Source: Psammoneis japonica (Eukaryota). From it: a stretch of 64,000 nucleotides of DNA. The notes beneath the pieces were generated by a model. The model saw nothing but the letters and a program-made list of their open reading frames with translations, did not search any database and had not been told where the DNA came from. The position numbers and the translations under genes were made by a program. Shown here in pieces: positions 1 to 34,833 of the stretch. The number at the start of each line of letters is the position of its first letter. The first letter of the stretch is position 1. Location of the stretch: contig QPGO01000007.1 of the NCBI GenBank assembly GCA_008632985.1, positions 62,001-126,000 of the forward strand. Reading direction: 5' to 3'.

Positions 1-334
1 GCGCTGAGGCACTGCCAGCATCTGTCTGCACCCCGCAAGGCTGACCACAAAAAAGCGCGGGAAGCACACATCACAATTGCGTCATCGGTGGGTGCATTTT
101 CATCCCCGGGCACGCTGCCGCCACCCGCCCGTGCATCACGGAGATGCAGTCCGGCGCATGCTGTGGGCCCCATGACAGTGCTGCAGGGCCCTGCTGTGGG
201 TCCACCTGTGGCAGGTGGGGAGGAGGGGTTCACTTTTGCTCGCGATCGACTCGCGAGGCGTTGCATCGACAATGAGATTGAGGAACATTCACGGCAACAT
301 CATCTTGGCGACAACATGCTTTCTGCTGTTGATT

Positions 335-1231
335 TTAGTTGTCAAAATGATCCACATCAAATGGTGAGTGACCCATCATGAGGGCCAACTGTGTGATGTT
401 GGCCACGGCATGAAACACATGGCAATGTGTTTCCTTCGCGTGGCGGCATCTTTTGTTGAGCATTCCGAAACGCTTGAACCATCCATTGACAGCCTCATGC
501 CTTGCCCTTGCTGTTGTTTTCGTGGCCTCGTCTGCATTTCTTAGGCCGGATGGAGTCGAGCTGCACTGGCTCCCGTTGCTGCGGCCACCGTCGGCCAGAC
601 ACATCTCGCCGTCTTCAAGCTCTTCAATGATCCATTCATGAGCAATGTTCAGATCCGGCAACCCAGCTGGGTGCGGCCCATTGACCCAAACAATCCACCC
701 TGTCTGAATGCATGTTCCAATTTCATGCCGCAGCCCAGCACCGTGGAATTTGTGGGAGAACCACATTGGATCGAATGGTGATGGCTCGTAGATTCTGAAA
801 TCAGTGCCGTCGAGTGTCACCAAACATCTGCTGCCGTTGTCATCAATGAAGCGGTCTTCCCAGTGAATCTAAGAACAAGGTGTCAGTCCATTTGTTTCAC
901 ACACATGAGCAATGTCTGGAATGGTGCGCGCCAAATTCAACTGTCCAACAAGTTGAATTCTGACCCAAACCCATTTTCTCAGCGTGTCTTCATGGATTTT
1001 ATTACAGATGCCAGCAACGACTGTCTCAGATTCATGCAATTTGAGAAAGCAAAGGGTGTGGAGCAGGTGAATGGGCAAAAAACCTTGTGGCATTTTCCCG
1101 TCGTCAATGAGAAGCCCCCACAACTCAGATGCCACTTCTTCTGGGGTGCAGAAGCATGCTGCAGGTGACCCTTTTGGCTTCTGAATGATCGTCTGTGCCA
1201 AGCACTCTGTGGCCTCTTTGGGCAGTCTCAT
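335..1231 (-). pseudogene. PIF/Harbinger DDE transposase (DDE_Tnp_4-like), 2 exons (1231-932, 868-335), degraded by TpA mutation
   Basis: Motifs LDGTDFRI.EP..F...WFSHKF.G.GLR(H)EIG, WIVWVNGP, LADGG, RARHE.VNG.FKRF. The 63-nt intron 931-869 has a CTGAC branch site, a TTAG acceptor and a GC donor, and joins LNL|IHWEDR in frame. Confidence 0.85.
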
Positions 1232-2163
1232 GATTGGCAATTGGCAGTGTGCCACAGTGTGTCACTTTAGCGTTTGTGCCAGTCTCTACCACTGGCAGCT
1301 GCTCTCTGCTCTGCAGCAGCTGGCTGCTCTAGAGAGTGGCACAGCAGTTGTTTGACATTTGACAATTGTGTTTTGTCGTCTTCACGCAGTTGGGGTTCTC
1401 ATTAGAAGAGGCCTTTGGTGAGATTCCGTCGTGTTTGAAGAAAATACGAAAAAAATGCGATTCGGGTGTGGTTTCCGAATGGTGACTTTGGGACGTTCGC
1501 AATGGGCAACTTTGGGCGTCGTTTTGTCAACCGGAACACGGTAGAATGACCATTCCAACGCGTGCTCTTAGCTCAACTAACACAGCAGTTTACATGCAAC
1601 ATGTGACACAGAATTTTAAAACCACAATCCATGGTTGGTGGTGCATTAAAAAAGCATTCTCATTCTACAAATCGAAATGAAATCGCCTTTTCACAGACGA
1701 AAAGCGCACGGAAATGTGCCAATGAAAAGCCAAAATGAACATCAGGAGCTAGTTTGCCATCAGTGCCATCGCAAACACACACCAAAGCTTGGGATTCAGC
1801 CACTCATTCTTCAGTTGAGATGGTCCAAAGTCATCGTTCTGGAGCTGAAAATCGTTTTGGGTGTGATTTGGGAACAATTTTTGTGTGGTCTTGGAATGTT
1901 TTTCGTGTGGTCTTGAGGGAATCTTCGTTGTCAAGAGGCCCTTTCTCAATGTTGGCGGTTGGTGTTTTCTCAAATCTCATTTTGGCGGTTGGAATTTATT
2001 CAAATTTGAAAAGAGTGTCACGCGGATGGTGGTGAGGTAAGTTTGTCGTGACCCATTCAAAAATGGGGTTCTCATTGCTGCCCGTCAACGCGAACGCTGA
2101 TCTTGACGACTCTCGACTGTGCACCATCAATCCTCTCACAAAAAAGAGAAAACCAAAGAAGCC

Positions 2164-3348
2164 ATGCCCAAACTCAACCAACGAACCAAATCGGTTCTTG
2201 ACACTGAGGCTGCCGGCCCCCTTCGAGCAGTGTGGCGCAAGGGGTCCGCCGACTGCAAACTCTTGAAGGAGATGCTGATGGATGGCAGGGCAAGCGCTGG
2301 AGCGACGCCAAAAGAGATCCAGCAGATGCGCGCAGAGTTCATGCGCTGTCCACTGGACAAGTTCCGCACTGGCTTGCACAGGCTCAAAGACGAAACCGGG
2401 TTCAATCTTCGTCGAACGATGAACGACAGCAATGAGAACCCTGACGGTGAGTTTTGATTTTCACTGCATTCGCACATGCACGTGAAATAAATGTGAGTGA
2501 CGTCACTGTGTTGCCGATGCGTGCATTTTCATTTGACCACACCGCGCGGTGTTCTTTTTTTTCATCTGGCCACAGACACCGACGACGGCGACGAAGAGCT
2601 GTTCTCGGGTGGCCTTGACAGCACTCGTCGGACGGCATCAGCTCCAGCTCCTGCAAACAACAACGATGCAGCTGCTGTCATGAATGGAGCTGGTGTTGCT
2701 TCTGTGATGGAGGCACGTGGTGGTGGGCAAGGAGGTTCTTGGAAAAGCTTCAAGCCCATGGTTTTGCAAGCTGCTTGCAAGGACTCTGTCACCAAGACCA
2801 ATCATGTCGTGTTGGTTGTTGTGGCTCCATCTGGTGTTTGCACCACGGACCTTTCTGGCATCCAGCTGTCTGTTGTGAGCAATGGGTGGATGCTCAGTTG
2901 CGTTTTCCAGTGGCCACAGCACTCCATGGACATGGACGCTCTTCACGCAGTTCTCCTTGATGAAGCCACTGCCCAAGGGGGAAACCACGGTGGCGATGAT
3001 GAACTCCGTGACATCTACAAGCGCCTTGAAGCTCTTTCAGATGAGCTGTCTTCAATGAGGCAGTCTGACTCTGAGGTCCTGTCTTCCACAGCCCTCGTGC
3101 CCTTGCCAATCCAGGTCTCTAGGAAAATCAACAAGGTTCATTTGTTGGGTGGTCGCGATGGGTCCAGGATCATTTGTGTGGACCTCAAGTCGGAAGATTC
3201 GACATGCTGCGCTGTGGAGAATCCAAAAGTCAAGTTGATTGATGCCACAGGCGATGGTGTTGGACTCATTGGCTGCAATTGGGAGCTGGACGCCAGCGGA
3301 CAGGATGCACATGCATTTGACACAATGCACAGATTAGGACATTTGTGA
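2164..3348 (+). pseudogene. Probable Harbinger second ORF (accessory/DNA-binding protein), 2 exons with intron 2447-2575
   Basis: Divergent from the transposase and equally TpA-depleted. A GTGAGT...CACAG intron joins ...ENPD|DTDDGDEE in frame. Two-ORF organisation is typical of PIF/Harbinger elements. Confidence 0.55.
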
Positions 3349-3499
3349 TTGTCAGCAACTGATTGGCACAACAAAACATTCTTTCAACAACAGTCTCAGC
3401 ACAGCTGCCACTGTGGCAGCAGCAGGGCCTGCTCTAGCCAGCAGAGTAGACTGCAGTTTGACTCGGCGATGAACTCGGCAGTGCGAGCACAGCAGTGCT

Positions 3500-4289
3500 C
3501 ACGTCTTTGGCTTTTTAAACAGAAGATTAAGGGAGCCCATGTAGAGCGGAAGGGAACAGCAGAGGGAGGCACAGAGGTGGCTGTAGAGACGGCAGAGAAG
3601 AAGGGTCGAAGGACGCAAGACGAAGGGCGTTTTGAGGAAGGTGTGGGTGAGGAGGGAGCAGGGAGAGAGGAAGTGAATCAGAGGATGTGCGTAGAAAGGT
3701 GAAGAACGACGTTGCAGCCAAGAGTTTGGGTGGCCCACTGGGATGGGGTGGCTGTGCGGCAGGTGCTCCCAAAGCGATCGGCAGACAGGCGATGCCATGC
3801 GAAATCAGCAGAGGGAAGGATTGCAGACGGAGACGACAAAGCACAGAGGAAGGCGGAGCAGGAGGCATCGGAGTGACGAAAGTCAGAGGAAGAGGACCAG
3901 GGTGGCTTGGGCTGAGAGCAGACGGAGGAGGATGTAGAGCCAAAGAGCAAGCGGTGAGCAAAGTGGCCGAGACCACCAAGGTGATCTACAGTGAAGGGGA
4001 GCAGGAAGATGCCATTGTTGTCAAGCGAAGAAACAACAAGGGATCCATCGGCAGAGGAAGTGGAGGGGCCAAGAAACTTCAATCTCGCGCTCGAGTGGTG
4101 TGCCTCAGTTGAGGCAGGAGAAGAGGGGGCAGGCAGACCTGGAGGAGGGCGAGAGGAAGCTTGAGGGACGGCAACGTCCACTGCAATGTAGTGATGGTGG
4201 GAGGGAGCGGAAAGGGAGGCGGGAGGGGGAATTAAAATGCCGACATCGGCGGGACGGAGGAGCGGGCGGGTGGGGAGCAGGTTGGTGGG
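3500..4289 (-). mobile_element. CRE-like non-LTR retrotransposon, 3' fragment (restriction-like endonuclease domain and 3' UTR)
   Basis: Reads LRPADVGIL...IAVDVAV...LLPFTVDHLGGLG (RLE-type RPAD and DV motifs). Joins the 11395-11741 fragment across the GTGGG TSD (VHLEP|TNLLP). Confidence 0.75.
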
Positions 4290-4565
4290 TGATGGAAATT
4301 GAAGGCAAATGGCAAGAATTCAAACAACAACTCCTTGCTGCTGTCTAAATGGCAGATGAGTCTCCGCTCAGAGACCGTTGCAGGAGCCGAAAGACGTGCA
4401 AGTCGGTACAATCGGGCTACTGTTGTCATTCTTGTGAGCCTTGTGGCTCGAAAGCAAACTACATCGCGCGCGAACGCGCGGAACTAAAGCACACAAAACT
4501 GTGCGCGGTAAACTAAACAGCGCGCGACACTTCGCGCGCATCCAAATCCTGTTCAAATCCTGTCA
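4290..4565 (-). repeat. 3' LTR of copia copy 1
   Basis: 276-bp direct repeat present four times in the window. Confidence 0.95.
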
Positions 4566-7500
4566 CTCCCCAGTTTGCTTGAGGAGCCACAGAAACAGAT
4601 TCGACTTTGGATGGAATGAAGTTCCAGAACATGAGGGGGCGGAGAAGGTCCCAGATTTGGGAGTGACCCCAATGCTTGCTGAGAATGTCAGCAGGGTTGC
4701 GGGAGCCTTCGATGAAGTGGAACTCAAGGCAACCAGAGGCAATTGCCTCACGCACACGGTGGAACGACAGTGCGGTGTGTCGCTTGTGTAACTTGGAGTG
4801 CGGGATGGTGGCACTGTCTACAACCGACTTGTTGTCACCGAACATGCAACTAATGTTGCGGATCGGGACGCCAAGGTGGCGCAGGGTGATGCGCAGGTCG
4901 ATAATCTGCTCAACACAATTCCTTGCGGCAACAAATTCAGATCCGCAGGTTGCAGTCTCCACGGTGGCTTGTTTCTTGGAGAACCAATCAGCCGGGAATT
5001 TGTTGAGGAAGTGGAGCATTCCCATGACAGAGCGTCCGGTGAGCATGCAATGGCACAAGTTTGCATCGACGCAGTGGGTGGCAGTGACGAACTTGCCAAG
5101 GGGCGGTGGAGCGTCCTTCGGGATCATCTCTTCTGCTTCACCACACACGGAGTGCATCCATTCACAGGCCGGAGCAGGGAGATCCGAACAGTCGGGCTCT
5201 TCCGTGCGAACGCGGAGAGCACCGTGTCGCATCTTGGAGAGGCACCCACAGATGCGTTTGGCACGATCCAAGTGGCCTTGACGGGGCGCAGCTCGGAAGC
5301 TAGAGAGTGACATGACAGCCGTGGCAATGTCAATTCAACCGAGGGACACTGCCCATTGGAGTGAACCAACAAGAGACTGGAACTTGTGAATGCCATCGGG
5401 TCCCAGCAGTTCGGAAGTGTCCAGTTCGGGGTGGTCACCCTTCTCCAGAGGTGACAGGGCGTTGGTGGCAGGTTTCTCCCCAAACAGTCGGGCGCAGCTG
5501 TCGACCATGCGCTCGATGTACTTGCGCGGAGACAGGCACAAGGTTCCGTCGGGGTCGCGGGAAAAGTCGCAACCCAGATGGAACTCAATGGGTCCCGTGC
5601 CCTTGAGCTTGAACTTGTGCTTTTCCGTGAGAGTGTCGACGAAAGATTGAGGGTCCTTCATGGCAATGGCGAGGTCATCCACATAAACGGCAATGTGTTC
5701 ACAGTGGTCGCCATTCCTGCGCATCCAAATGTCGGGCTCGGCGCGGCAGGGGAAGAAGCCTTCAGCTCGCAGGCAGTCGGCGAAGCGCTCGTGCCAGCGG
5801 AGACCGGAGCTGCGCAGTCCATACAGTGCCTTGTGGATGACAAGGATGTGTCCTTCGAGTTTGCCAAATTCGGGTCCAGCTACAATGTAAAGCTTCTCCT
5901 TGGTGGTGGCCTCAAGGCAGGCATTGCCAATGTCGGTGGCCCATGTCTCCAGCTCGTTGAGTTCGGCCAGGAAAATCATCAGCCGAAGGCCACGGAGGGA
6001 GACTGCTCCGGAGCAGACACTGTCGACAGGTGCGTCCGTGAGGTGCCCGTCGGCTACGAGTCGTGCCTTGTGGCGACCGTCGTGTTTCACGTCGTGCGCC
6101 AGGTGCACTCGGATCTTCTTGTGTCCCGCAGGAGGAGTGGAAGACTTGAAGGGCCCGCAGTCATGGAAGACTTCGTATTCGTCGAGTTGGTCCATCTCGA
6201 GATTAGTTGCGTCTCCCCACTTGCGGTTGCCGTTGCGTTCGTCTAGTGACATGGCGTGTTTGTAGTTCCGGGGAACTTCGTATCCGTACTTGCAGCGAGG
6301 TGCAGTGCGGAAGGAGCGAAGCTTGGCTTGGTTGGCCATGCGAAATAGCTTCTTTTGGCGCCTCGCGATAGTGCGGAACCGCTTCCAGCCATCCGTGTCG
6401 AGGAGTCCGTTCTCTCGTGCACAGATGGCACAGGTGACGGGGTCGTCCTTGGCGATGATGGCAAGAGGCTCGGACGTGATCTCCCCACTTTCCCATTCAA
6501 GCATGATGTTGTAGCTTGAGCCTTTCCAGGTTGGGTCGTGAGGCTTCAGAGGTCCTTCGTGTGACACGATGCGTCGAAATTTCCAGACAGTGGTGTCTTC
6601 GTCGTCTTGCTCAATGTGATTCATGATGTCATTGTGGGCAAGGACTTCCTCGCATTCGTCATTGTTGACAGAGCAGACGAACTTAGTGAGCTCGGGATTG
6701 CCGTTCACTTTCCATTCATGGTCTTCGACGGCCTTGACGATGCGAGCTCTGTGGCGTTGTCCGTCCTCTTGTGGCTGCATGAGGAAGGTACGTCCAATGA
6801 TGTCTTGCGGATCGAAAACTGGCATCTTGGGTGTCCTGATCTCCCCATCAGGAGAATCGACGGGGTTGTCGTCATGGCGAGATTTGATGATGGGTTCAGG
6901 TGGCTCCCCATCAGGAGGATCAAGACGCAGGTTTCGAATGGCAGGATCGGGGTTAGCGGAGCGAACGTTGGACCGGCAGAGGATCTTTTGAGTCTCGTCA
7001 GATAGGATCTTGAAGGTCATCTGGTGGCCGACGTGCTCAGCAATGCCAACGAAGCGTCCACGCAACTCACGGGATTCGGACGGCCAATCGGAGTCATCGA
7101 GGTGGAAGCACACTGGTTCCCACCAGTGAAAGCGAAGCAATGGGCTGATGTCCGGGGTGGATCCAGTGAGAGTCTCGAGGGGCGTGCACCAGTGGAGACG
7201 TGGGGACGCTGTGTGGTTGAGCATGAAGCACACGCACATGAGCGCCAGCAGCCATGTGTGGGCGGGCGAACCAAAACGGTCCATGACAGTGTTCGCCATG
7301 CGCTTCACGGTCTGGTGTCGACGCTCGGCAAAGTTTTGGTGTTGCTGGTGAGGCTCACTTTGCCAGCTGGAGATGAAGAGGGCGCGTAGGATCCCGAGCA
7401 CTTTGTTGCTGATCTCAACTTGAGCACGGTCGCTAATGAGTTTGGATGGGGCACCACGTTCACGGATCTGATCCTCGAGTGTGTTGACAAACTCTTTGTC

Positions 7501-10176
7501 CGTCTCAGTGCCGTAGACGTCAGTGACGGTAGACTCGGTGCCAACAAACAGTTGGGCGCTGGTGCAACCAGAGTCGACGGCCGGGGTGTCGGCACAAACG
7601 GTGTCAGTGGCGACAGGCTCGTTGCGGCGGTGCACATTAAGGGCGGGGTTGGGTGATTTGCAGGCCTTGCGAAGGTGTGTGCCGGCGGGCATGCGGGCGC
7701 ACTGCGTGGTGCAGTCAAAAGTACGACGGACCGCATCGGCAGGTAGGAAGCCAAAGCAAGGCCGAAGAGACTCGAAGGGGGGGTCCTTGGGCTGTACAGT
7801 GCGCTCCGGAGGTGGAACGTCATCGCCCTTGGGGTCAATCGCATGCAGATGACACTCGTAGAACACGTCGTCGTTCGGAATGAGGTGATCATCGAGGGCG
7901 GACGCGTGATTGGCAGACAAGGAAGTGGACAAGATGGTCTCGTTGACAATGACACAGTGACGGCAGTTGCCGCATTCGTCAAATGGGTTGGCAGTGGGAT
8001 CGTCCTGCAGGTCAGAGATCGCGTCGCACCACTGGTCGTCGTCAGTGACAGAGTGATCGAGGACGGAAGGGTCCCATGTGTCATCACCGGTGAGGATGAC
8101 ATGGGGCAGGGTGTCCCATTCGACGTCAGTGCAAGGGCGCATGGCAACACAAGGCAGGCCAGCCTTGATGTCAATGGGGATGACACAGCCATCAGGAGTG
8201 GCAACACGTTGCAAGCCGTTGGGCACCTTGACAGAGCGATCGTTGACATCCTGTTTGTGCCATTCGAGCTGGCCGCAGGAATGGATGGTCTTGCCCTTGC
8301 CCGTGCATGCGTGCTGATGGAGGATGGCGATGACGGGACCATGCTGGGTCTCAATGACGGCACCAGCGGTGACAATGGGGATGTCCACCAATTGATGATC
8401 GTCAATGCCCTGAACGTCGACTTGGCGAGAGGTGCGTGCAATGACGCGAACGTCGTCGCCAGCAATGCCGCCGTTGGCCCCACGGTCGACTAGAGCGCCA
8501 GTGCGTGTGGAGCGATGAGCAGAGGCAGAGCAAATGACATTGTGGTTGTCAACGCGGCGGTGAGTGCGGCCGTTAAGTTCTGTGTCATCTGCAGAAGCTG
8601 GCGGGGTAGAGGAAGCGGCGGATGGCCCCGGTCGACTGGCATTGGGGGCTTGGTTAGGAGACAACAGACGTTGCAGATCACCGGGTGGCAGTGGCTTGCG
8701 CTTGGTGAGGTGCGCCTGGATGGGATTGTCCGAAGTGGCGTCCACATGTGGAGCGGAGTCACCACAGTCAGCGGGAGTCGTGTTGGACAAGTTGACATCA
8801 CCGTCACTCCCAAGGTGTTGGTCGTGAAGGTTGGCCGTAACAGACTCATGGCAGTTGCTGGCTCGCGGGTTGCGGGGAGGCGGACGAGAATGCTCAAGGA
8901 TGATCGCCTTGGAGGAATCGGGCAACGAATCCCAGAGCCGTTGGTGGTCGGGAGGGAGACGTCTCCATTGGACACCGGTGAGGCTGGGACCGCGGGTGTG
9001 GGCAGCATTGGCTTGAAGGACGTCAACGTCGCTGTCAATGTCGTAGAACACATCGTCGGACGGGTCCTGGACGTCGTGTGCGCATGTGGCGCGTCGGGGA
9101 GCTCGAGGTGTCGTCTTGGGTTGAAACGTGCTGTCGCACTGAGCTGCCGCGGAGAGGAGCAAGCCACAGCATTGATCGCATGTGAGGCTCTTGCCACTCT
9201 GCGTACGATGCTGATCAGCTTGGTTCTTGACAGCACGGAGTTCCTCGACAGGGTGCACGGCATTCTCGAGCATGACGCGCTTCTGTCCTTCAGAGAAGTG
9301 GTCGCTGGCGGGGATGAGTGCCTCACACTTGCGCAACTGATCTTGCCAATGAAGGATGAACCCGTGGGTCGGACCTTTCCAAGTGCCATCACCAAGACGT
9401 GCGGTGGTGAGGTGCGTGAGCAGGGTGGAGGACTCGACAGATGCGCGGGTGGAGGCAAGCGCGTGCTCAGACAAGGAGCGGCAGACGGTCTGTGCGTCAG
9501 AAGACCCCACATTTTCGTGAATGAGAGCCTTGCCCTTGTCGGTGAGAAGGATGCGTTCGAAGACGGCGAACATGTGCTTTTGCTGTTCAGCAAAGAGCAG
9601 TTTGTCTTCGGGGCTGGTCGGTTTGTACGACGAGTCTAGAATGCACTCGACGTCTTGGGCACGGGCTTGTGCCACAAGTGAGGTGTGCCAAGTGTGCCAC
9701 TGCTTGTCGGATTTGAGAGCCGTGAAAGCGGTGGGATCACGCTTGATGCCTCGCTTGAAGTCTCGCACCGGGTCGCGTGCCTTGGTCGGGTTGGTGACAT
9801 GTGGAGGTGCAAGGGGTGAGCTGCCGATGGACACAGAGGACATGCAGTCCGGGCTGAGGCGGCAGGCAAGGAACTCGTCATGCGTGAACAAAGAGGAGTC
9901 GTTGGCAACGTCAAGACCTTTGTGTGCTTTGACAATGTACAGACTGGCCAGTGCTGCTAACATGTTCTTACAACCACGAGGCAAAGGGATTGCATTGGTG
10001 CCGTTGTCGCACTCAAGCGAGTCGATTTGGGACGGCATGAACGTGAACAGTTCCTGATGCGAGTCCGTGCCGTCTTGGGCCAAAGCCAAACGAAGAGGAC
10101 TCCCAGCACCTTGGGCAAGCACGGTTCCAACAACGTGCTCGAAACCATCGATTTGTTGCTGACGAGTGAGAACCAT
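4513..10176 (-). pseudogene. Copia gag-pol polyprotein, copy 1; in-frame TGA at 5335-5337 (CGA in copy 2) and many Tyr->Cys/His changes
   Basis: LVDRGANGG protease, integrase core (SDRAQ...SEPHQQHQNFAE), RT (KARLVADG, DIGNA, LYGLRSSG, YVDD), RNase H (DNKSV, NPADILSK). Confidence 0.93.
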
Positions 10177-11118
10177 GGTGGACAAAAGTGGTGTCAGGAC
10201 AATCAATTCTGGTTGGAAAGCGAAGGTGGACTCGAAACTTGGGTGACAATAGACTTGACTTGAAATGGACTTGACTTGAAATCTTGAACTGATCTTAAAA
10301 TCAGAAGTCGCCGGGCTTTGTTGCCCCGTTTGTTGTCAAGTGCTAAACTTCCCATCCGGTCCGTAGAGTTGTGCCGGCACGTCCGAACCCGCAGCTGGCG
10401 GCGCTTTGGGTTGCTTGCGAGCGGAGCAGCGGGTTGCAAACCCCTGCAGGCAAGCTGACCAGAGGTGGACAAGACCCCCGAACCGTTCTCATTTTATGTC
10501 GGTTGGATTTCCCGATCAGGCTGGCCAGTTGACGCAGGCGTTGGGCGCTGTGGACGAACGAACAAACGCGGGAAAGCACCCTCGCCCCAACGCAGGCTGT
10601 GATCATGGCTGCTTGCTCTCACAGTCATCCTCGTGGACCCAGCAGAACTGTGGAGCACCAGTGGACCGGGGTAGATCAGGTACAATGGACTCGGTGTGCT
10701 TGTAGAGTGGCAGCAAAACCGCAGTCCGAAGAGTGGGTACAGGTTCTTGGCCGTGAAGATGTGCACATATATGTGTGTGTCTTCAGCGACGAAGATCCTT
10801 GAATATGCAGGGTTCTTGACCGTTAACCGATGAACAGGTATATCAAGGGATGAGGATCAAGGATAGACTTGGATATGACCGTTGAATGTATGTCTTCAGC
10901 GATCAAAGGCAGTATAATCAATCCAGATATCCAGCGGTAAGGAGACTTGACGGTGACGTTAACTTCCTGCCGATGCCCTGGTATTGAATGCGCGTAGACT
11001 TGCCGATGTATGTAGAACATATACGGAGGTCCACGTAGAATTGAAATAGCGTCGTTGGTAAATCAACGACGACGATGGCGGTTGCTCAATGGGTTGACAA
11101 TGAGCAAGACTGTTAATC

Positions 11119-11394
11119 TGATAGAAATTGAAGGCAAATGGCAAGAATTCAAACAACAACTCCTTACTGCTGTCTAAACAGCAGATGAGTCTCCGCTCAG
11201 AGACCGTTGCAGGAGCCGAAAGACGTGCAAGTCGGTGCAATCGGGCTGCTGTTGTTGTTCTTGTGAGCCTTGTGGCTCGAAAGCAAACTACATCGCGCGC
11301 GAACGCGTGGAACTAAAGCACACAAAACTGTGCGCGGTAAACTAAACAGCGCGCGACACTTCGCGCGCATCCAAATCCTGTTCAAATCCTGTCA
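11119..11394 (-). repeat. 5' LTR of copia copy 1
   Basis: 276-bp direct repeat, TG...CA ends. Confidence 0.95.
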
Positions 11395-11741
11395 GTGGGT
11401 TCGAGATGAACGTCATCAGGGGATCGACAGAACTCTGCAAGAGGACCCAAAGTTTGGGCTAGGATGAAAACAGTGTCACGGAGACCATTGGAGAGCTTGG
11501 ACTTGTGAGCACGGTGGCAAGAAAAGGCATGATCACCACAGGCATCCAGGATGGCATGGCCACAGGGACAGGGAGTGTTGACAAGGGACGGAGGAAGGAT
11601 GGGGAGACGAAGCTTGTGAAGGGCGGCAATGACGCAGGCGTCCGAAGAAAGGCGGGAGCTTGGGAAGCGATGGGAGAAGGAATGAAGAGGGAGGCTTGCA
11701 AGCGGAGACAGCAATGAAGGGAGCGAAGATTGCACGTCGCA
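11395..11741 (-). mobile_element. CRE-like non-LTR retrotransposon, middle fragment (CCHC zinc knuckle)
   Basis: HKLRLPIL...CPCG..ILDACGDHAFSC. Reading frame is continuous with both neighbouring fragments once the copia copies are removed. Confidence 0.75.
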
Positions 11742-12017
11742 TGATGGAAATTGAAGGCAAATGGCAAGAATTCAAACAACAACTCCTCACTGCTGTCTAA
11801 ACAGCAGATGAGTCTCCGCTCAGAGACCGTTGCAGGAGCCGAAAGACGTGCAAGTCGGCACAATCGGGCTGCTGTCATTGTTCTTGTGAGCCTTGTGGCT
11901 CGAAAGCAAACTGCATCGCGCGCGAACGCGCGGAACCAAAGCACACAAAACTGTGCGCGGCAAACTAAACAGCGCGCGATGCTTCGCGCACATCCAAATC
12001 CTGTTCAAATCCTGTCA
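11742..12017 (-). repeat. 3' LTR of copia copy 2
   Basis: 276-bp direct repeat; the most TpA-eroded of the four. Confidence 0.95.
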
Positions 12018-15000
12018 CTCCCCAGTTTGCTTGAGGAGCCACAGAAACAGATTCGACTTTGGATGGAATGAAGTTCCAGAACATGAGGGGGCGGAGAAGG
12101 TCCCAGATTTGGGAGCAACCCCAATGCTTGCTGAGAATGTCAGCAGGGTTGCGGGAGCCTTCGATGAAGTGGAACTCAAGGCAACCAGAGGCAATTGCCT
12201 CACGCACACGGTGGAACGACAGTGCGGTGTGTCGCTTGTGCAACTTGGAGTGCGGGATGGTGGCACTGTCTACAACCGACTTGTTGTCACCGAACATGTG
12301 ACTGACGTTGCGGATCGGGACGCCAAGGTGGCGCAGGGTGATGCGCAGGTCGACAATCTGCTCAACACAATTCCTTGCGGCAACAAATTCAGATCCGCAG
12401 GTTGCAGTCTCCATGGTGGCTTGTTTCTTGGAGAACCAATCAGCCGGGAATTTGTTGAGGAAGTGGAGCATTCCCATGACAGAGCGTCCGGTGAGCATGC
12501 AATGGTGCAAGTTTGCATCGACGTAGTGGGTGGCAGTGACGAACTTGCCAAGGGGCGGTGGAGCGTCCTTCGGGATCATCTCTTCTGCTTCACCATGCAC
12601 GGAGTGCATCCATTCATGGGCTGGAGCAGGGAGATCCGAATGGTCGGGCTCTTCCGTGCGAACGCGGAGAGCACCGTGTCACATCTTGGAGAGGCACCCA
12701 CAGATGCGTTTGGCACGATCCAAGTGGCCTTGACGGGGCGCAGCTCGGAAGCCAGAGAGTGACATGACAGCCGTGGTGATGTCAATTCGACCAGGGACAC
12801 TGCCCATTGGAGTGAACCAACAAGAGACTGGAACTTGTGAATGCCATCGGGTCCCAGCAGTTCGGAAGTGTCCAGTTCGGGGTGGTCACCCTTCTCCAGA
12901 GGTGACAGGGCGTTGGTGGCAGGTTTCTCCCCAAACAGTCGGGCGCAGCTGTCGACCATGCGCTCGATGTACTTGCGCGGAGACAGGCACAAGGTTCCGT
13001 CGGGGTCCGGGAAAAGTCGCAACCCAGATGGAACTCAATGGGTCCCGTGCCCTTGAGCTTGAACTTGTGCTTTTCCATGAGAGTGTCGACGAAAGATTGA
13101 GGGTCCTTCATGGCAATGGCGAGGTCATCCACATAAACGGCAATGCATTCACAGTGGTCGCCGTTCCTGCGCATCCAAATGTCGGGCTCGGCGCGGCAGG
13201 GGAAGAAGCCTTCAGCTCACAGGCAGTCGGCGAAGCGCTCGTGCCAGCGGAGACCGGAGCTGTGCAGTCCACACAGTGCCTTGTGGATGACAAGGATGTG
13301 TCCTTCGAGTTTGCCAAATTCGGGTCCAGCTACAATGTAAAGCTTCTCCTTGGTGGTGGCCTCAAGGCAGGCATTGCCAATGTCGGTGGCCCATGTCTCC
13401 AGCTCGTTGAGTTCGGCCAGGAAAATCATCAGCCGAAGGCCACGGAGGGAGACTGCTCCGGAGTAGACACTGTCGACAGGTGCGTCCGTGAGGTGCCCGT
13501 CGGCTACGAGTCGTGCCTTGTGGCGACCGTCGTGTTTCACGTCGCACACCAGGTGCACTCGGATCTTCTTGTGTCCCGCAGGAGGAGTGGAAGACTTGAA
13601 GGGCCCGCAGTCATGGAAGACTTCGTATTCGTCGAGTTGGTCCATCTCGAGATTAGTTGCGTCTCCCCACTTGCGGTTGCCGTTGCGTTCGTCTAGTGAC
13701 ATGGCGTGTTTGTAGTTCCGGGGAACTTCGCATCCGCACTTGCAGCGAGGTGCAGTGCGGAAGGAGCGAAGCTTGGCTTGGTTGGCCATGCGAAATAGCT
13801 TCTTTTGGCGCCTCGCGACAGTGCGGAACCGCTTCCAGCCATCCGTGTCGAGGAGTCCGTTCTCTCGTGCATAGATGGCACAGGTGATGGGGTCGTCCTT
13901 GGCGATGATGGCAAGAGGCTCGGACGTGATCTCCCCACTTTCCCATTCAAGCATGATGTTGTAGCTTGAGCCTTTCCAGGTTGGGTCGTGAGGCTTCAGA
14001 GGTCCTTCGTGTGACACGATGCGTCGAAATTTCCAGACAGTGGTGTCTTCGTCGTCTTGCTCAATGTGATTCATGATGTCATTGCAGGCAAGGACTTCCT
14101 CGTATTCGTCATTGTTGACAGAGCAGACGAACTTAGTGAGCTCGGGATTGCCGTTCACTTTCCATTCATGGTCTTCGACGGCCTTGACGATGCGAGCTCT
14201 GTGGCGTTGTCCGTCCTCTTGTGGCTGCATGAGGAAGGTGCGTCCAATGATGTCTTGCGGATCGAAAACTGGCATCTTGGGTGTCCTGATCTCCCCATCA
14301 GGAGAATCGACGGGGTTGTCGTCATGGCGAGATTTGATGATGGGTTCAGGTGGCTCCCCATCAGGAGGATCAAGACGCAGGTTTCGAACGGCAGGATCGG
14401 GGTTAGCGGAGCGAACGTTGGACCGGCAGAGGATCTTTTGAGTCTCGTCAGATGGGATCTTGAAGGTCATCTGGTGGCCGACGTGCTCAGCAATGCCAAC
14501 GAAGCGTCCACGCAACTCACGGGATTCGGACGGCCAATCGGAGTCATCGAGGTGGAAGCACACTGGTTCCCACCAGTGAAAGCGAAGCAATGGGCTGATG
14601 TCCGGGGTGGATCCAGTGAGAGTCTCGAGGGGCGTGCGCCAGTGGAGACGTGGGGACGCTGTGTGGTTGAGCATGAAGCACACGCACATGAGCGCCAGCA
14701 GCCATGTGTGGGCGGGCGAACCAAAACGGTCCATGACAGTGTTCGCCATGCGCTTCACGGTCTGGTGTCGACGCTCGGCAAAGTTTTGGTGTTGCTGGTG
14801 AGGCTCACTTTGCCAGCTGGAGATGAAGAGGGCGCGAGGATCCCGAGCACTTTGTTGCTGATCTCAACTTGAGCACGGTCGCTAATGAGTTTGGATGGGG
14901 CACCACGTTCACGGATCTGATCCTCGAGTGTGTTGACAAACTCTTTGTCCGTCTCAGTGCCGCAGACGTCAGTGACGGTAGACTCGGTGCCAACAAACAG

Positions 15001-17625
15001 TTGGGCGCTGGTGCAACCAGAGTCGACGGCCGGGGTGTCGGCATGAACGGTGTCAGTGGCGATGGGCTCGTTGCGGCGGTGCACATTAAGGGCGGGGTTG
15101 GGTGATTTGTGGGCCTTGCGAAGGTGTGCACCGGCGGGCATGCGGGCGCACTGCGTGGTGCAGTCAAAAGTGCGACGGACCGCATCGGCAGGCAGGAAGC
15201 CGAAGCAAGGCCGAAGAGACTCGAAGGGGGGGTCCTTGGGCTGTACAGTGCGCTCCGGAGGTGGAACGTCATCGCCCTGGGGGCCAATCGCATGCAGATG
15301 ACACTCGTAGAACACGTCGTCATTCGGAATGAGGTGATCATCGAGGGCGGACGCGTGATCAGCAGACAAGGAAGCGGACAAGATGGTCTCGTTGACAACG
15401 ACACGGTGACGGCAGTTGCCGCATTCGTCAAACAGGTTGGCAGTGGGATCGTCCTGCAGGTCAGAGATCGCGTCGTGCCACTGGTCGTCGTCAGTGACAG
15501 AGTGATCGAGGACGGAAGGGTCCCATGTGTCATCACCGGTGAGGATGACATGGGGCAGGGTGTCCCATTCGACGTCAGTGCAAGGGCGCATGGCAACATG
15601 AGGCAGGCCAGCCTTGATGTCAATGGGGATGACACAGCCATCAGGAGTGGCAATGCGTTGCAAGCCGTTGGGCACCTTGACAGAGCGATCGTTGACATCC
15701 TGTTTGTGCCATTCGAGCTGGCCGCAGGAGTGGATGGTCTTGCCCTTGCCCGTGCACGTGTGCTGATGGAGGATGGCGATGACGGGACCACGCTGGGTCT
15801 CAATGATGGCACCAGCGGTGACAATGGGGATGTCCACCAATTGATGATTGTCAATGCCCTGAACGTCGACTTGGCAAGAGGTGCGTGCAATGACGCGAAC
15901 ATCGTCGCCAGCAATGCCGCCGTTGGCCCCACGGTCGACTAGAGCGCCAGTGCGTGTGGAGCGATGAGCAGAGGCAGAGCAAATGACATTGTGGTTGTTG
16001 ACGCGGCGGCAAGTGCGGCCGTTAAGTTCCATGTCATCTGCAGAAGCTGGCAGGGTAGAGGAAGCGGCGGATGGCCCCGGTCGACTGGCATTGGGGGCTT
16101 GGCCAGGAGACAACAGACGTTGCAGATCACCGGGTGGCAGTGGCTTGCGCTTGGTGAGGTGCGCCAGGATGGGATTGTCCGAAGTGGCGTCCACATGTGG
16201 AGCAGAGTCACCACAGTCAGCGGGAGTCGTGTTGGACAAGTTGACATCACCGTCACTCCCAAGGTGTTGGTCGTGAAGGTTGGCCGCAACAGACTCATGC
16301 CAGTTGCTGGCTCGCGGGTTGCGGGGAGGCGGACGAGAATGCTCAAGGATGATCGCCTTGGAGGAATCGGGCAACGAATCCCAGAGCCGTTGGTGGTCGG
16401 GAGGGAGACGTCTCCATTGGACACCGGTGAGGCTGGGACCGCGGGTGCAGGCAGCATTGGCTTGAAGGACGTCAACGTCGCTGTCAATGTCGTAGAACAC
16501 ATCGTCGGACAGGTCCTGGACGTCGTGTGCGCATGTGGCGCGTCGGGGAGCTCGAGGTGTCGTCTTGGGTTGAAACGTGCTGTCGCACTGAGCTGCCGCG
16601 GAGAGGAGCAAGCCACAGCATTGATCGCATGTGAGGCTCTTGCCACTCTGCGTGCGATGCTGATCAGCTTGGTTCTTGACAGCACGGAGTTCCTCGACAG
16701 GGTGCACGGCATTCTTGAGCATGACGCGCTTCTGTCCTTCAGAGAAGTGGTCGCTGGCGGGGATGAGTGCCTCGCACTTGCGCAACTGATCTTGCCAATG
16801 AAGGATGAACCCGTGGGTCGGACCTTTCCAAGTGCCATCACCAAGACGTGCGGTGGTGAGGTGCGTGAGCAGGGTGGAGGACTCGACAGATGCGCGGGTG
16901 GAGGCAAGCGCGCACTCAGACAAGGAGCGGCAGACGGTCTGTGCGTCAGAAGACCCCACATTTTCACGAATGAGAGCCTTGCCCTTGTCGGTGAGAAGGA
17001 TGCGTTCGAAGACGGCGAACATGTGCTTTTGCTGTTCAGCAAAGAGCAGTTTGTCTTCGGGGCTGGTCGGTTTGTACGACGAGTCTAGAATGCACTCGAC
17101 GTCTTGGGCACGGGCTTGTGCCACAAGTGAGGTGTGCCAAGTGTGCTGCTGCTTGTCAGATTTGAGAGCCGTGAAAGCGGTGGGATCACGCTTGATGCCT
17201 CGCTTGAAGTCTCGCACCGGGTCGCGTGCCTTGGTCGGGTTGGTGACATGTGGAGGTGCAAGGGGTGAGCTGCCGATGGACACAGAGGACATGTGGTCCG
17301 GGCTGAGGCGGCAGGCAAGGAACTCGTCATGCGTGAACAAAGAGGAGTCGTTGGCAACGTCAAGACCTTTGTGTGCTTTGACAATGTACAGACCAGCTGG
17401 TGCTGCCAACATGTTCTTACAACCACGAGGCAAAGGGATTGCATCAGTGCCGTTGTCGTGCTCAAGCGAGTCGATTTGGGACGGTGTGAACGTGAACAGT
17501 TCCTGACACGAGTCCATGCCGTCTTGGGCCAAAGCCAAACGAAGAGGACTCCCAGCACCTTGGGCAAGCACGGTTCCAACAACGTGCTCGAAACCATTGA
17601 TTTGTTGCTGACGAGTGAGAACCAT
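11965..17625 (-). pseudogene. Copia gag-pol polyprotein, copy 2; 1-bp deletions (~14836, ~13007, ~12792), nonsense codons and Tyr->Cys/His changes
   Basis: Same domains as copy 1, split over ORFs 14755-17655, 13217-14758, 12782-13174, 12576-13022 and 11965-12609. Confidence 0.9.
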
Positions 17626-18567
17626 GGCAGACAAAAGTGGTGTCAGGACAATCAATTCTGGTTGGAAAGCGAAGGTAGACTCGAAACTTGGGTGACAACA
17701 GACTTGACTTGAAATGGACTTGACTTGAAATCTTGAACTGTCTTGAAATCAGAAGTCGCCGGGCTTTGTCACCCCGTTCGTTGTTGAGTGCTAAACTTCC
17801 TGTCCGGTCCGTAGAGTTGTGCCGGCACGTCCGAACCCGCAGCTGGCGGCGCTTTGGGTTGCTCACGAGCGGAGCAGCGGGTTGTAAACCCCTGCAGGTA
17901 AGCTGACCCAGAGGTGGACAAGACCCCCGAGCCGTTCTCATTTTATGTCGGTTGGATTTCCCGATCAGGCTGGCCAGTTGACGCAGGCGTTGGGCGCTGT
18001 GGACGAACGAACAAACGCGGGAAAGCACCCTCGCCCCAACGCAGGCTGCAATCACGGCTGCTTGCTCTCACAGTCATCCTCGTGGACCTGGCAGAACTGT
18101 GGAGCACCAGCAGACCGGGGTAGATCAGGTGCAATGGACTCGGTGTGCTTGCAGAGTGGCAGCAAAACCGCAGTCCGAAGAGTGGGTGCAGGTTCTTGGC
18201 CGTGAAGATGTGCGCATGTGTGCACATGTCTTCAGCGACGAAGATCCTTGAATGTGCAGGGTTCTTGACCGTTGGCCGATGAACGGGTGTGTCAAGGGAT
18301 GAGGATCAAGGACAGACTTGGATGTGACCGTTGAATGCATGTCTTCAGCGATCAAAGGTGGTGTGATCAATCCAGATGTCCAGCGGTAAGGAGACTTGAC
18401 GGTGACGTTAACTTCCTGCCGATGCCCTGGCCATTGAATGCGCGTAGACTTGCCGATGTATGTAGAACATATACGGAGGTCCACGTAGAATTGAAACAGC
18501 GTCGTTGGTAAATCAACGACGACGATGGCGGTTGCTCAATGGGTTGACAATGAGCAAGACTGTAATC

Positions 18568-18843
18568 TGACAGAAATTGAAGGCAAATGGCAAGAATTCA
18601 AACAATAACTCCTTACTGCTGTCTAAATAGCAGATGAGTCTCCGCTCAGAGACCGTTACAGGAGCCGAAAGACGTGTAAGTCGGTATAATCGGGCTACTG
18701 TTATTATTCTTGTGAGCCTTGTGGCTCGAAAGCAAACTACATCGCGCGCGAACGCGCGGAACTAAAGCACACAAAACTGTGCGCGGTAAACTAAACAGCG
18801 CGCGATACTTCGCGCGCATCCAAATCCTGTTCAAATCCTGTCA
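18568..18843 (-). repeat. 5' LTR of copia copy 2
   Basis: 276-bp direct repeat; retains 16 of the 17 TpA sites seen across the four LTRs. Confidence 0.95.
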
Positions 18844-19065
18844 TCGTAAGATGAGTTGGCAAGGATGGAGGTTGCTGCTTGCTGCTGATGTTCATGGCAG
18901 AGGCGACGAGTCAGGCCAGGAAGAGTGGCCGATTTAACCAGGGCAGCCAAGGAAGAAGAGGAAAGGGTAGAGGCGGAAGCCAGAACGGGAGCATAACGGC
19001 GGAAGAGCGTATAGAGTCGTAGGGAAGAGCGAGGGTTGGACCAGGAAGATGGGGAGAGCCGAAAT
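18844..19065 (-). mobile_element. CRE-like non-LTR retrotransposon, 5'-most (truncated) fragment
   Basis: ...AATSILANSSY|DVQSSLPSLLSP reads through the TCGTA TSD into the middle fragment. No RT domain is present. The 5' boundary is approximate. Confidence 0.65.
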
Positions 19066-19526
19066 TTCGCTGTTGCACGTACGACGTACGTGCGGCATGC
19101 TGGCAGTCGTCGTAATCGTCTGCTCTCATTCTCTGGTAGGTACAGTACAGTACGGCCGCCCGGTACATACAGTGGGTTTCTGTAGGGCCCTACTCTCTCC
19201 ACTACTACGGTAGCTAGCCAGCTATCTGCGGCGCGGGCTGGTGCCTTTTGTATGGAAAAAACGCGTGGAACCATGCGGAGACGTTTTTTCCTGCAACTCC
19301 CTGTGGATTGAGCTGTCTTATCCCGGTTCAGGTCTCATCAGAAAGAGTGCACTATCAAACATTATGTGTACCGTAGATCTCTATGTATGGAAACACGATA
19401 TCTACAGTAAGAAAATTCGCAAAATTATAAAGGACCGATCGATAGCCCGCTGAGCCAAGAATTCTAGAGGGCATCAATACAAGTCTCACTGATACAAACT
19501 CGATCTTGTCTCTAGCACCATAGTCC

Positions 19527-22575: not shown

Positions 22576-22920
22576 TCACTAACTAAGTGTCTGTAATCTA
22601 CAAAGCTTCAACTATAGACGCGAGTAGAGTGGAGAATAATGGGAAAGATGTAATGGAAACAGGCGCGAAAGATGATTCAACGATGCGGCGGTCGTCAGAG
22701 GGGGGTCATCATCGTGACAGAGAAAACTGGTCCCCGCAACACGCACGAACCATTATCTCCGGGTGTCTTTCATATCTGGGTCATTAAATACGTGGAATTC
22801 AGTATTCAAAGTGTCTTTTCTACGTCTTATACGTAGGACAATACGGGATTTGATTTCTACTGGTGATGAGAAGACAACGCGGCTCTTCGTGGTGCCCATA
22901 ATTTTTTCTCAGGGTTGACA

Positions 22921-30224: not shown

Positions 30225-30515
30225 TGCCGAATGTCACGGTCATCTATATTCATTCGTGTGTTCATTCGTGGGTGTCAACCTGGTGTCAAAAGTGTCAAAA
30301 GGATGTCAACGATGACACTTTCTAGAAACCTCTTCTCCTTTCTCGATGCATCTCGATGCCTCTCGAAAGATTGTTTCTTTACATTTCTACGCGGTTTCTT
30401 AGCATTAATTCTACGAGATTTCGGAGTAGCCGAATCTCTTTCATTTCTTCTCACAATGTTGGCAACAGTCAACTTTACAACGCTACTTTATACTATTACT
30501 TGGCGCCACTTGGCA
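30225..30515 (+). repeat. Gypsy 5' LTR
   Basis: Direct repeat of 34834-35124 with 8 substitutions. Confidence 0.95.
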
Positions 30516-34812: not shown

Positions 34813-34833
34813 CGTCTCAATTGGGGAAGCGAG

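Follow-up and report, generated by a model that had tools for sequence, protein, structure and literature searches.

Hypermutation confined to TpA steps is known from the chlorarachniophyte (rhizarian) Bigelowiella natans, where two integrated viral regions in mutation-accumulation lines acquired 231 mutations, 230 being A to G or T to C, with all such AT to GC mutations lying on TpA (Mettrop et al. 2026, bioRxiv 10.64898/2026.01.13.699255). According to that preprint, the mutations arose de novo, in some lines only, with a per-generation rate about 1000 times background, and adenine deamination was proposed as a hypothesis for the signature. In a literature search this was the sole experimental precedent, and no report of TpA hypermutation in a diatom was found. 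The integrated giant-virus and virophage DNA described there shares several traits with the DNA analysed here: change of TpA to TpG or CpA on both strands, in foreign or mobile DNA only; tracts depleted in TpA and enriched in CpA and TpG; and an excess of reverse transcriptase and DDE endonuclease domains among TpA-poor coding sequences.

In the present case a diatom (stramenopile) is the host, and instead of integrated viral DNA the process has struck LTR retrotransposons, the remnant of a DNA transposon and repeats of no assigned class. TpA depletion is deeper (obs/exp 0.00-0.27, as against 0.45 given in the preprint for the B. natans viral region), and mutation, which the preprint places far above the background rate, is known here from sequence comparison rather than from real-time measurement. 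A 3' pyrimidine rule, a tract structure, a replacement of Tyr by Cys or His and a co-occurring CpG decay are all seen here; the main text of the preprint uses none of the words trinucleotide, context, flanking and diatom.

Fungal RIP, which depends on duplicated sequence, a RID-type methyltransferase and a premeiotic stage, converts C to T at CpA or another CpN (CpA to TpA in Neurospora), so that AT and TpA increase and TAA and TAG stops arise. It shares with the present case a restriction to repeat or transposon DNA, a single transition class in a dinucleotide context, action after integration, the sparing of host genes and the confounding of annotation and dating. Its chemistry and effect are nevertheless the opposite: A:T to G:C changes here lower TpA, raise GC and make no stops, and RIP was rejected for this DNA, in which TpA is depleted and the GC content of mutated copies is 0.56-0.57 as against 0.48 in relatives. 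ADAR, acting on repeat dsRNA, and APOBEC3, acting on retroelement cDNA, likewise leave clusters of deaminase-type transitions in mobile elements and favour certain 5' neighbours, but APOBEC makes C to T, and both systems act before or during reverse transcription, whereas the changes here postdate integration and reach non-retroelement DNA. To our knowledge, the only enzyme type shown to deaminate A in DNA is TadA/ADAT2 (including TadA-derived base editors). Its natural target, A34, follows U33 and so forms a T-A step. The DNA contexts measured for amphioxus BjADAT2, 5'-GAA for A and 5'-TCG for C (PMC10354150), differ from the TAY context found here, and a 5' T is not enriched at the CpG events of this DNA (7 of 41; baseline 26%). 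RID-related DNMT4 genes, described in a further source as of unknown function, are present in some diatoms (PMC9998398).

The window, a 64,000-nucleotide stretch of diatom DNA, contains two retrotransposon copies in tandem, both on the minus strand, together with other mutated DNA:

1-4289, no strand: TA-depleted repeat DNA (TA obs/exp 0.00-0.36 per 500 bp)
338-868, minus strand: DDE_Tnp_4 transposase remnant, inside the preceding region
4290-11394, minus strand: Ty1/copia LTR retrotransposon, copy 1 (TA obs/exp 0.27, GC 0.56), supported by self-BLAST, an RVT_2 match and composition
4290-4565, minus strand: 3' LTR of copy 1 (276 bp, TG...CA ends; 10 of 15 variable ancestral TA sites derived)
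4513-10176, minus strand: polyprotein frame of copy 1 (ATG at 10176, terminal TAG at 4513-4515, 1887 codons, Tyr 0.77%)
5335-5337, minus strand: sole in-frame stop of copy 1, TGA (Arg in homologs at this column; CGA to TGA)
11119-11394, minus strand: 5' LTR of copy 1 (10 of 15 sites derived, including a run of 8 copy-1-only events)
11395-11741, no strand: 347-bp spacer of non-copia sequence between the copies, with a single TA
11737-11741, no strand: left target-site duplication of copy 2, TCGCA (right partner TCGTA at 18844-18848)
11742-18843, minus strand: copia copy 2 (TA obs/exp 0.20; 97.0% identity to copy 1 over 7107 columns)
11742-12017, minus strand: 3' LTR of copy 2 (15 of 15 sites derived; 2 TA remain)
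18568-18843, minus strand: 5' LTR of copy 2 (1 of 15 derived; 16 TA remain; almost unmutated)
30223-35128, plus strand: Ty3/gypsy element at an early stage, with an unbroken 1409-aa ORF at 30583-34812
56600-57482, no strand: less-mutated paralog of parts of the following tract, supplying the direction of change there
58300-64000, no strand: end-state tract of no recognised family, with both TpA and CpG erased

Copy 1 has an RVT_2 match (E 5.6e-26), 276-bp LTRs ending in TG...CA and a 5-bp target-site duplication (GTGGG on both sides of copy 1, at 4285-4289 and 11395-11399), three features expected of a Ty1/copia LTR retrotransposon. No Pfam integrase domain was matched in it, the integrase region being recognised via homologs only.

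We consider it highly probable that transposon and repeat DNA of this diatom has undergone DNA-level, post-insertion hypermutation of TpA to TpG or CpA (A:T to G:C transitions), with host genes spared. The two copia copies differ by 204 substitutions, 201 of them transitions, and 198 fall within the 3592 positions that belong to pyrimidine-purine (YR) steps, i.e. TA, CG, TG or CA, as against 6 within the other 3515 positions. The change described in B. natans is recognised here in 26 TA/TG, 33 TA/CA and 48 TG-versus-CA steps between the copies, at 15 LTR sites and at 8 of 8 substitutions in the gypsy LTR pair. The B. natans description of "almost exclusively A:T to G:C" holds for the TA class; CG versus TG/CA accounts for 41 of the 204 differences (CG/CA 22, CG/TG 19), hence the spectrum is not purely A:T to G:C.

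Direction was obtained from the LTRs, which, like a target-site duplication, are identical at integration. All 24 variable columns among the four copia LTRs lie in YR steps, and none elsewhere; at 15 of these sites one or two LTRs have TA and the rest TG or CA, the least-changed LTR (5' LTR of copy 2) retaining TA at 14. Within elements, the LTR pairs differ at 9 of 276 sites in copy 1, at 17 of 276 in copy 2 (the original prediction had put this at about 16) and at 8 sites in the gypsy element, where TA always stands in the 3' LTR and TG or CA in the 5' LTR. These pairs and one target-site duplication differ solely by TA versus TG/CA, plus a few CG versus TG/CA, and the TCGCA/TCGTA pair of copy 2 implies a TA to CA change in flanking DNA after insertion. 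Such differences within one element thus point to a change at the DNA level, after insertion, from TA to TG/CA, a direction that we regard as supported. Because all variable columns lie in YR steps, LTR divergence follows the mutational process rather than time, and LTR-based ages would be inflated, as had been anticipated.

The CG-class changes most likely belong to a second, slower process, a CpG to TpG/CpA decay that would run in parallel and whose direction is suggested by the least-mutated LTR and the Arg columns alone. It may correspond to deamination of 5-methylcytosine, which its pattern matches, with no 5' context bias. The in-frame TGA of copy 1 would stem from this separate decay, since homologs have Arg at that column.

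When events are oriented as A to G, the 3' neighbour is a pyrimidine in 48 of 58 (binomial test against 0.5, p = 4.5e-7); YTAY goes to TG in a ratio of 6:0 and RTAR to CA in a ratio of 21:3 (Fisher p = 1.4e-4), and 7 of the 8 gypsy LTR events obey the same rule. The preference is absent in the saturated 58-64 kb tract (3' pyrimidine in 15 of 29). Neighbouring single-copy events share the mutated copy in 47 of 58 pairs, a value reached by 0 of 5000 permutations, and both strands are mutated inside a single tract, tract length being about a few hundred bases. The process acts after integration, tract by tract and on both strands, with a preference for the A of 5'-T-A-Y-3' on either strand. The tract clustering is compatible with episodic action.

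As a matter of pure inference by analogy, the underlying reaction might be one in which adenine in DNA is deaminated to inosine by a polynucleotide deaminase of the TadA/ADAT2 type, a candidate enzyme that would be directed to silenced repeat chromatin. An origin on the thymine side, in which a TET/JBP-type enzyme modifies T in 5'-RTA (e.g. to 5-hydroxymethyluracil) and mispairing or misrepair leads to T to C, seems to us unlikely. Dinoflagellate 5-hydroxymethyluracil favours TpA, and mutation of both strands in each tract is as expected of a mark on a palindromic step. Every event can equally be written as RTA to RCA, which is TAY to TGY on the other strand, so that the two chemistries appear identical in sequence; the window evidence gives the thymine side no preference over adenine deamination, and the latter is what the sole paper on the signature proposes (10.64898/2026.01.13.699255).

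Mutation at TpA is confined to mobile and repeat DNA, and neighbouring host genes are spared. TA steps per kb number 42.3 in the 19-58 kb region and 8.9, 6.9 and 2.2 in mutated zones. Of 43 gaps of 180 bp or more that lack TA, 41 lie in these zones. From 58501 onward TA obs/exp is 0.00-0.10 and CG obs/exp 0.00-0.29 per 500 bp, with TA-free runs of up to 1284 bp. Relative to the less-mutated paralog, this tract shows 16 TA to CA, 15 TA to TG, 15 CG to TG and 8 CG to CA changes, with 3 in reverse. Summed contig depth over the repeat DNA at 1-4289 is 770-4900, compared with 97 in a unique flank bin. The mutated DNA is repetitive, as are RIP targets. As the DDE_Tnp_4 remnant, the spacer and unclassified repeats are also TA-depleted, the process is not linked to retrotransposition.

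These last observations bear on A-to-I hyperediting of retrotransposon transcripts at the RNA level (ADAR- or ADAT-like), fixed by reverse transcription. A to G and T to C changes with a 5' U preference do resemble ADAR action on repeat dsRNA, as the Discussion of the B. natans preprint notes (10.64898/2026.01.13.699255), and the best-studied victims in the window are retrotransposons. Yet spacer, transposase remnant and unclassified repeats were mutated too, the mutated tracts are not the same in the two integrated copies, and LTRs and target-site duplication, identical at integration, differ by these changes only, making this account very improbable; ADAR-type editing before integration is contradicted outright by the LTR differences (9, 17 and 8 sites) and the TA/CA difference in the copy 2 duplication. 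We give just as little credence to an assembly artefact, in which modified TpA and CpG in silenced repeats would be miscalled as TG/CA by long-read base-calling. In its favour, the effect extends to TA and CG alike, the two self-complementary YR steps, and is limited to repeat DNA, where modification is expected, and the sequencing platform of the runs is not on record. However, TA erasure is complete over 5.5 kb, outcomes depend on the trinucleotide and, site for site, are not always the same from copy to copy, and the Tyr to Cys/His changes are consistent with genuine codon change. In run X1, 4987 of 16813 contig pieces on positions 1-20000 match the window at 99% or better, and family-copy variant places comprise 591 transitions against 113 transversions; the runs containing the stretch come from one sample, probably the assembled one, and are not independent support.

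The consequences at the protein level had been predicted from motifs, and these were all found, in copy 1 as DIGNACLEA (5934-5908), HLAHDVKH (6105-6082), SVCSG (6021-6007), HCVDANL (5076-5056) and TATCGSEF (4956-4933), with LYGL unchanged, and in copy 2 as HLVCDVKH, LCGL, DIGNACLEA and TATCGSEF, with SVYSG and HYVDANL unchanged. The supposed VYDVK ancestor is less secure: this column is mostly Phe in 24 aligned homologs, and an ancestral Tyr rests there on the His/Cys discordance between copies. Compared with 74 full-length homologs, the Tyr share of copy 1 is 0.77% (homolog mean 3.82%, minimum 3.03), with Cys at 3.25% (0.91%, maximum 1.28) and His at 4.74% (3.48%, maximum 4.24). Tyr occupies 37 columns in 80% or more of the 74 homologs; there copy 1 carries Y 8, C 19, H 7, F 2 and W 1, with identical totals in copy 2, whereas 636 of the 684 remaining conserved columns are retained. 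The proposed replacement of conserved Tyr by Cys or His is confirmed. The paired states of the copies are C/C 13, H/H 4, C-versus-H 6, Tyr in one copy 6 and Y/Y 5. Of 23 Tyr sites altered in both copies, 17 show concordant changes, which may reflect parallel hits or descent from a source that was mutated beforehand. The choice between Cys and His shows no significant dependence on the base preceding the Tyr codon (p = 0.37). In related metagenome loci (n = 80), Cys is absent at these Tyr sites in the 15 lowest-Tyr loci and in the top three; each window copy has 18 C and 6 H of 34 in the same comparison. The gypsy element, with its ORF still intact, has lost 9 of 29 conserved Tyr, to Cys (6) or His (3).

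That no mutational process operated, the family being TA-poor by ancestry or selection or the organism decoding or editing TGY and CAY back to Tyr, is hardly credible: TpA is indeed under-represented across the window (host DNA obs/exp 0.4-0.9), but the 80 relatives keep Tyr, and their TA obs/exp has a median of 0.74 and a minimum of 0.35, compared with 0.27 and 0.20 in the window copies. LTRs and target-site duplication fix the direction, and where the copies have changed, homologs carry Tyr, not Cys or His. A host gene elsewhere in the window retains 14 of 15 conserved Tyr as TAY, so that a variant code is not in play, and no single recoding rule turns TGY in one copy and CAY in the other into Tyr at one and the same column, as the six C-versus-H cases would demand of RNA editing.

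Under the hypermutation reading, Tyr goes mainly to Cys (TGY), or to His (CAY) via the opposite strand, because all Tyr codons (TAY) are the target motif. In the standard code, TA to TG/CA turns TAY into TGY or CAY, NTA into NTG or NCA, and NNT|ANN into NNT|GNN or NNC|ANN, producing no stop, and TAA and TAG become TGA, CAA, TGG or CAG. This logic, set out in the original prediction, is borne out by the counts: TAA plus TAG per kb of strand is 18.6 in 19-58 kb and 6.2, 5.0, 6.1 and 1.9 in mutated zones, a fall of about three- to ten-fold, with no drop in TGA (18.4 versus 18.7-26.9). On this reading, elements are killed by missense with their frames open, since the products are never stops and TAA and TAG are themselves erased. 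Dead transposons here still resemble intact genes. We tentatively raise the possibility, plausible but still doubtful, that a programmable "reverse RIP" genome defence is common to diatoms and chlorarachniophytes, namely a DNA adenine deaminase recognising 5'-TAY on either strand, directed tract by tract at transposon and viral chromatin and killing by missense only. If so, such a defence would erase Tyr codons and strip two of the three stop codons, and genomes of the SAR lineage would hold long, open, Cys/His-rich ghost ORFs and falsely old LTR pairs. The predicted long, intact-looking ORFs hold for copy 1, with its one internal TGA, but not for copy 2, whose CDS has lost a single base at four places compared with copy 1. 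The predicted excess of spurious ORFs is real yet moderate: ORFs of 80 aa or longer number 5.4-6.0 per kb, as against 3.56 per kb in the remaining window.

Repeat DNA in the window has been altered after insertion by a DNA-level, tract-wise transition process which acts on both strands and is directed at TpA(Y); within the window this process is limited to repeat DNA. The mobile elements concerned are the following.

4290–11394, minus strand: LTR retrotransposon copy 1, one of two copies of one Ty1/copia element
11742–18843, minus strand: LTR retrotransposon copy 2, the other copy of this element
10176 (ATG) to 4513–4515 (TAG), minus strand: reading frame of copy 1, with a single internal TGA at 5335–5337
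30223–35128, plus strand: Ty3/gypsy element with LTRs of 298 bp and an uninterrupted ORF of 1409 aa
338–868, minus strand: DDE_Tnp_4 (PIF/Harbinger-type) transposase remnant (E 2.9e-7), within TA-depleted repeat DNA

The two copia copies, with LTRs of 276 bp ending in TG...CA, are 97.0% identical across 7107 columns and are separated by a 347 bp spacer containing one TA. Transitions account for 201 of their 204 substituted sites, and 198 substitutions fall inside pyrimidine-purine (YR) steps, i.e. TA, CG, TG and CA (3592 positions), versus 6 in the 3515 positions outside them. Steps differ between copies as TA/TG (26), TA/CA (33), TG vs CA (48), CG/CA (22) and CG/TG (19). Rates estimated from the step counts are at least 0.38 events (TA to TG or CA) per ancestral TA per copy and about 0.04 per CpG, while the remaining positions show an estimated 0.0017 differences per site between the two copies.

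The original prediction was that such changes turn conserved transposon tyrosines into cysteine or histidine without creating stop codons. The motifs that it cited are all found in place, and alignment to homologs bears out the loss. The protein of the copia long frame, which carries an RVT_2 (Ty1/copia) reverse transcriptase domain (E 5.6e-26), has 1728 homologs, the best of them 60–70% identical and about 1850–1930 aa long. At 37 columns with Tyr in at least 80% of 74 full-length homologs, copy 1 has Tyr in 8, Cys in 19, His in 7, Phe in 2 and Trp in 1, and copy 2 gives the same totals; 636 of 684 other conserved columns of this alignment are retained in copy 1. The paired residues of the two copies are Cys in both (13), His in both (4), Cys versus His (6), a single Tyr left (6) or Tyr in both (5). 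Overall, the copy 1 protein contains 0.77% Tyr, 3.25% Cys and 4.74% His, as compared to homolog means of 3.82%, 0.91% and 3.48%, and lies outside the homolog range for all three. The control is the intronless host gene for diphthine-ammonia ligase (48597–51110), in which 14 of the 15 conserved Tyr persist, as do 336 of 348 conserved columns. A variant genetic code, which would have accounted for the missing tyrosines, is thereby excluded. The host is a diatom: the named relatives of this ligase belong to raphid pennate diatoms (44–53% identity), and its best matches, which carry no taxon name, reach 67%.

The direction and timing of the changes are evident from the LTRs. The two LTRs of an element are copied from a single template and are identical when integrated, so that differences between them must have arisen in chromosomal DNA. 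Of the 276 columns of the four copia LTRs, 24 vary; at 15 sites some LTRs have TA where others show TG or CA, with derived states numbering 10, 10, 15 and 1 in the individual LTRs, the 5′ LTR of copy 2 being nearly untouched and its own 3′ LTR saturated. Three further observations agree with a chromosomal origin. The two halves of the target-site duplication flanking copy 2 do not match, being TCGCA and TCGTA (that of copy 1, GTGGG, is a perfect 5 bp repeat); all 8 gypsy LTR substitutions oppose TA in the 3′ LTR to TG or CA in the 5′ LTR; and a less mutated paralog at 56.6–57.5 kb polarises the saturated 58–64 kb tract, with 16 TA to CA, 15 TA to TG, 15 CG to TG and 8 CG to CA changes and 3 in the reverse direction. 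The predicted direction, TA to TG or CA, is thus supported by LTR pairs, target-site duplication and paralog polarity alike.

Across the window, TpA observed/expected ratios per 2 kb are 0.10–0.25 over most of 1–18000 and 0.02–0.13 over 58001–64000, and 0.4–0.9 elsewhere. Three TA-depleted zones contain 8.9, 6.9 and 2.2 TA per kb, versus 42.3 in the host DNA of 19–58 kb, and of the 43 stretches of 180 bp or more that lack TA (longest 1284 bp), 41 lie inside zones. The spacer, the DDE_Tnp_4 remnant and unclassified repeats are all TA-depleted, so that the process is not tied to reverse transcription, and the remnant shows that DNA transposons are affected too. The gypsy element, whose stop-free 1409-aa frame encodes RVT_1, RNase H and integrase domains, has only begun to undergo the same mutation, with changes concentrated in its 5′ LTR and at 33.3–33.9 kb: of 29 Tyr conserved in the 12 closest homologs, 9 are now Cys (6) or His (3), five of them at 33352–33856.

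With events oriented as A to G, a pyrimidine follows the mutated A in 48 of 58 (binomial test against 0.5, p = 4.5e-7), as compared to 41% of the TA sites that survive, each counted in both orientations. The outcome depends on the flanking bases (YTAY vs RTAR, Fisher p = 1.4e-4), and YTAR makes up 38, 27 and 75% of surviving TA in the zones versus 17% in host DNA.

Outcome at TA sites of the two copia copies by flanking bases (Y, pyrimidine; R, purine)
Context: changed to TG; changed to CA; TA kept in both copies
YTAY: 6; 0; 7
RTAR: 3; 21; 17
RTAY: 14; 7; 8
YTAR: 3; 4; 17

Since all Tyr codons are TAY, their sense-strand A is always a preferred target, and the TAY rule accounts for the excess of Cys over His (19:7). 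Events are also clustered by copy: neighbouring events share a copy in 47 of 58 cases, a value reached in none of 5000 permutations, as exemplified by a copy 2 run at about 10680–10930 (copy 1 coordinates) and by eight successive events seen in copy 1 alone, within its 5′ LTR. Both TG and CA outcomes occur within tracts, with no significant strand coordination (like adjacent pairs 8/16 and 23/41, p = 0.64 and 0.22). Some results go against a simple picture. The TAY preference is absent from the saturated 58–64 kb tract (15/29); the base preceding a Tyr codon predicts His versus Cys in the expected direction without reaching significance (p = 0.37); and changes at CpG lack a 5′-T bias (7/41). 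Given this last result, the CpG changes look like a separate, slower process, most simply 5-methylcytosine deamination; according to the text available, diatom transposons are CpG-methylated and some diatoms possess RID-related DNMT4 genes (PMC9998398). Drift from CA/TG to CG as a source of the high CpG was dropped, since of 77 columns with conserved His, Gln, Trp or Cys, 0 have changed to Arg.

As to mechanism, a TadA/ADAT2-type enzyme guided to silenced chromatin may deaminate adenine in the DNA to inosine. This idea is taken from Bigelowiella natans, in which, as described in the accessible text of a preprint on mutation accumulation (bioRxiv 10.64898/2026.01.13.699255), an integrated giant virus and a virophage gained 231 mutations, of which 230 were A to G or T to C, all of these on TpA and in some lines only, with reverse transcriptase and DDE endonuclease domains enriched in TpA-poor CDS. 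The likeness, as far as that text goes, lies in TpA transitions in mobile or foreign DNA, there viral insertions and here transposons and repeats. DNA adenine deamination has been shown for amphioxus ADAT2, although the contexts stated in the part of the article available, GAA and TCG (PMC10354150), differ from the TAY rule. A single ADAT2-like enzyme acting on both A (in TA) and C (in TCG) was dropped in view of the unbiased CpG events.

Thymine-side chemistry, in which a modified T at RTA drives the TpA change, fits equally well, the sequence data being matched as closely as by adenine deamination. A base-calling artefact at modified bases is unlikely: in run X1, 4987 contig pieces are at least 99% alike, with variant places comprising 591 transitions versus 113 transversions. 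The runs comprise four entries, all contigs of one sample and one study, which may be the source of the assembly, so that they do not count as independent support; their summed contig depth does not equal copy number. The LTR, target-site and DNA-transposon data contradict an editing of RNA ahead of reverse transcription. Against ancestral composition or selection speak the polarity of the changes and the composition of relatives: 80 related metagenome loci have a median TA observed/expected of 0.74 (0.35–1.02), versus 0.27 and 0.20 for copies 1 and 2, and Cys at conserved Tyr columns is absent from the 15 of these loci with fewest Tyr and the 3 with most. No hypermutated relative occurs among these loci or the 120 homologs listed (128 proteins including cluster members; lowest Tyr of a full-length one, 3.03%), both sets being biased toward intact copies.

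It follows directly from the genetic code that TA to TG/CA changes yield no stop codon and erase TAA and TAG. Indeed, TAA plus TAG fall from 18.6 per kb of strand to 6.2, 5.0, 6.1 and 1.9 in mutated zones, with TGA unchanged at 18–27, and the density of ORFs of 80 aa or longer increases from 3.56 to 5.4–6.0 per kb, in line with the predicted ORF excess. The expectation of intact-looking frames holds for copy 1, open save for one TGA that stands at an Arg column of the homologs and hence represents a CpG change, but not for copy 2, whose CDS carries four 1-base deletions. Gene finders will mistake such dead transposons, and any frames that overlap them, for genes. LTR-based ages were rightly suspected of being misleading: LTR pairs differ at 9 (copy 1), 17 (copy 2) and 8 (gypsy) sites, all of this class, and since 24 of 24 variable copia LTR columns are YR-step changes, LTR dating is invalid for the window's elements.

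TpA hypermutation is of a kind very recently described. Literature searches found its signature in the 2026 B. natans preprint only, and no report of it in diatoms. What the window adds is a trinucleotide rule, tract structure, Tyr to Cys/His replacement in frames that stay open, and the failure of LTR-based ages. If true, this would place a targeted A:T to G:C mutator, which is very unusual, in diatoms as a second major lineage after a chlorarachniophyte, and would argue that the defence is widespread and no mere curiosity. The 5′-TAY rule, the targeting of both strands and the saturation of tracts a few hundred bases long are mechanistic constraints testable at the bench, and other genomes can be screened cheaply for the process by way of Tyr-poor, Cys/His-rich proteins.

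Other features of the window may be mentioned. Its host genes are intron-poor or intronless, with TpA at normal levels; two family-10 fucosyltransferase paralogs (22870–25041 and 40720–43281, both plus strand) are each a long single ORF. A tandem array at 51680–53000, with nested periods of 18, 33 and 84 bp and 32 copies reported, has multiple open frames on both strands, and its 427-aa frame has no Pfam match. The approx. 5.7 kb of 58300–64000 are complex, non-simple sequence with TpA and CpG nearly gone (12 TA in 58500–64000, 30 CG in 58501–64000, TG and CA about 1.9 times expectation); none of 12 ORFs of the 58–64 kb tract passed the Pfam cut-off (PIN_TASOR, 18.1 bits versus 27). The 5′ UTR and 5′ LTR ends of the copia copies (10500–11400, 18000–18843) are mutated less than the remainder, in a pattern unlike between copies, and tract edges lie here inside the elements and not at their ends. 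Contigs of run X1 bridge 11736/18844, 4285/11403 and 3437–3512/19065–19071, so that forms lacking copy 2, copy 1 or the entire 15.6-kb nest are present in the same data; either the copia copies sit nested within a repeat of greater age, or their insertions are polymorphic.
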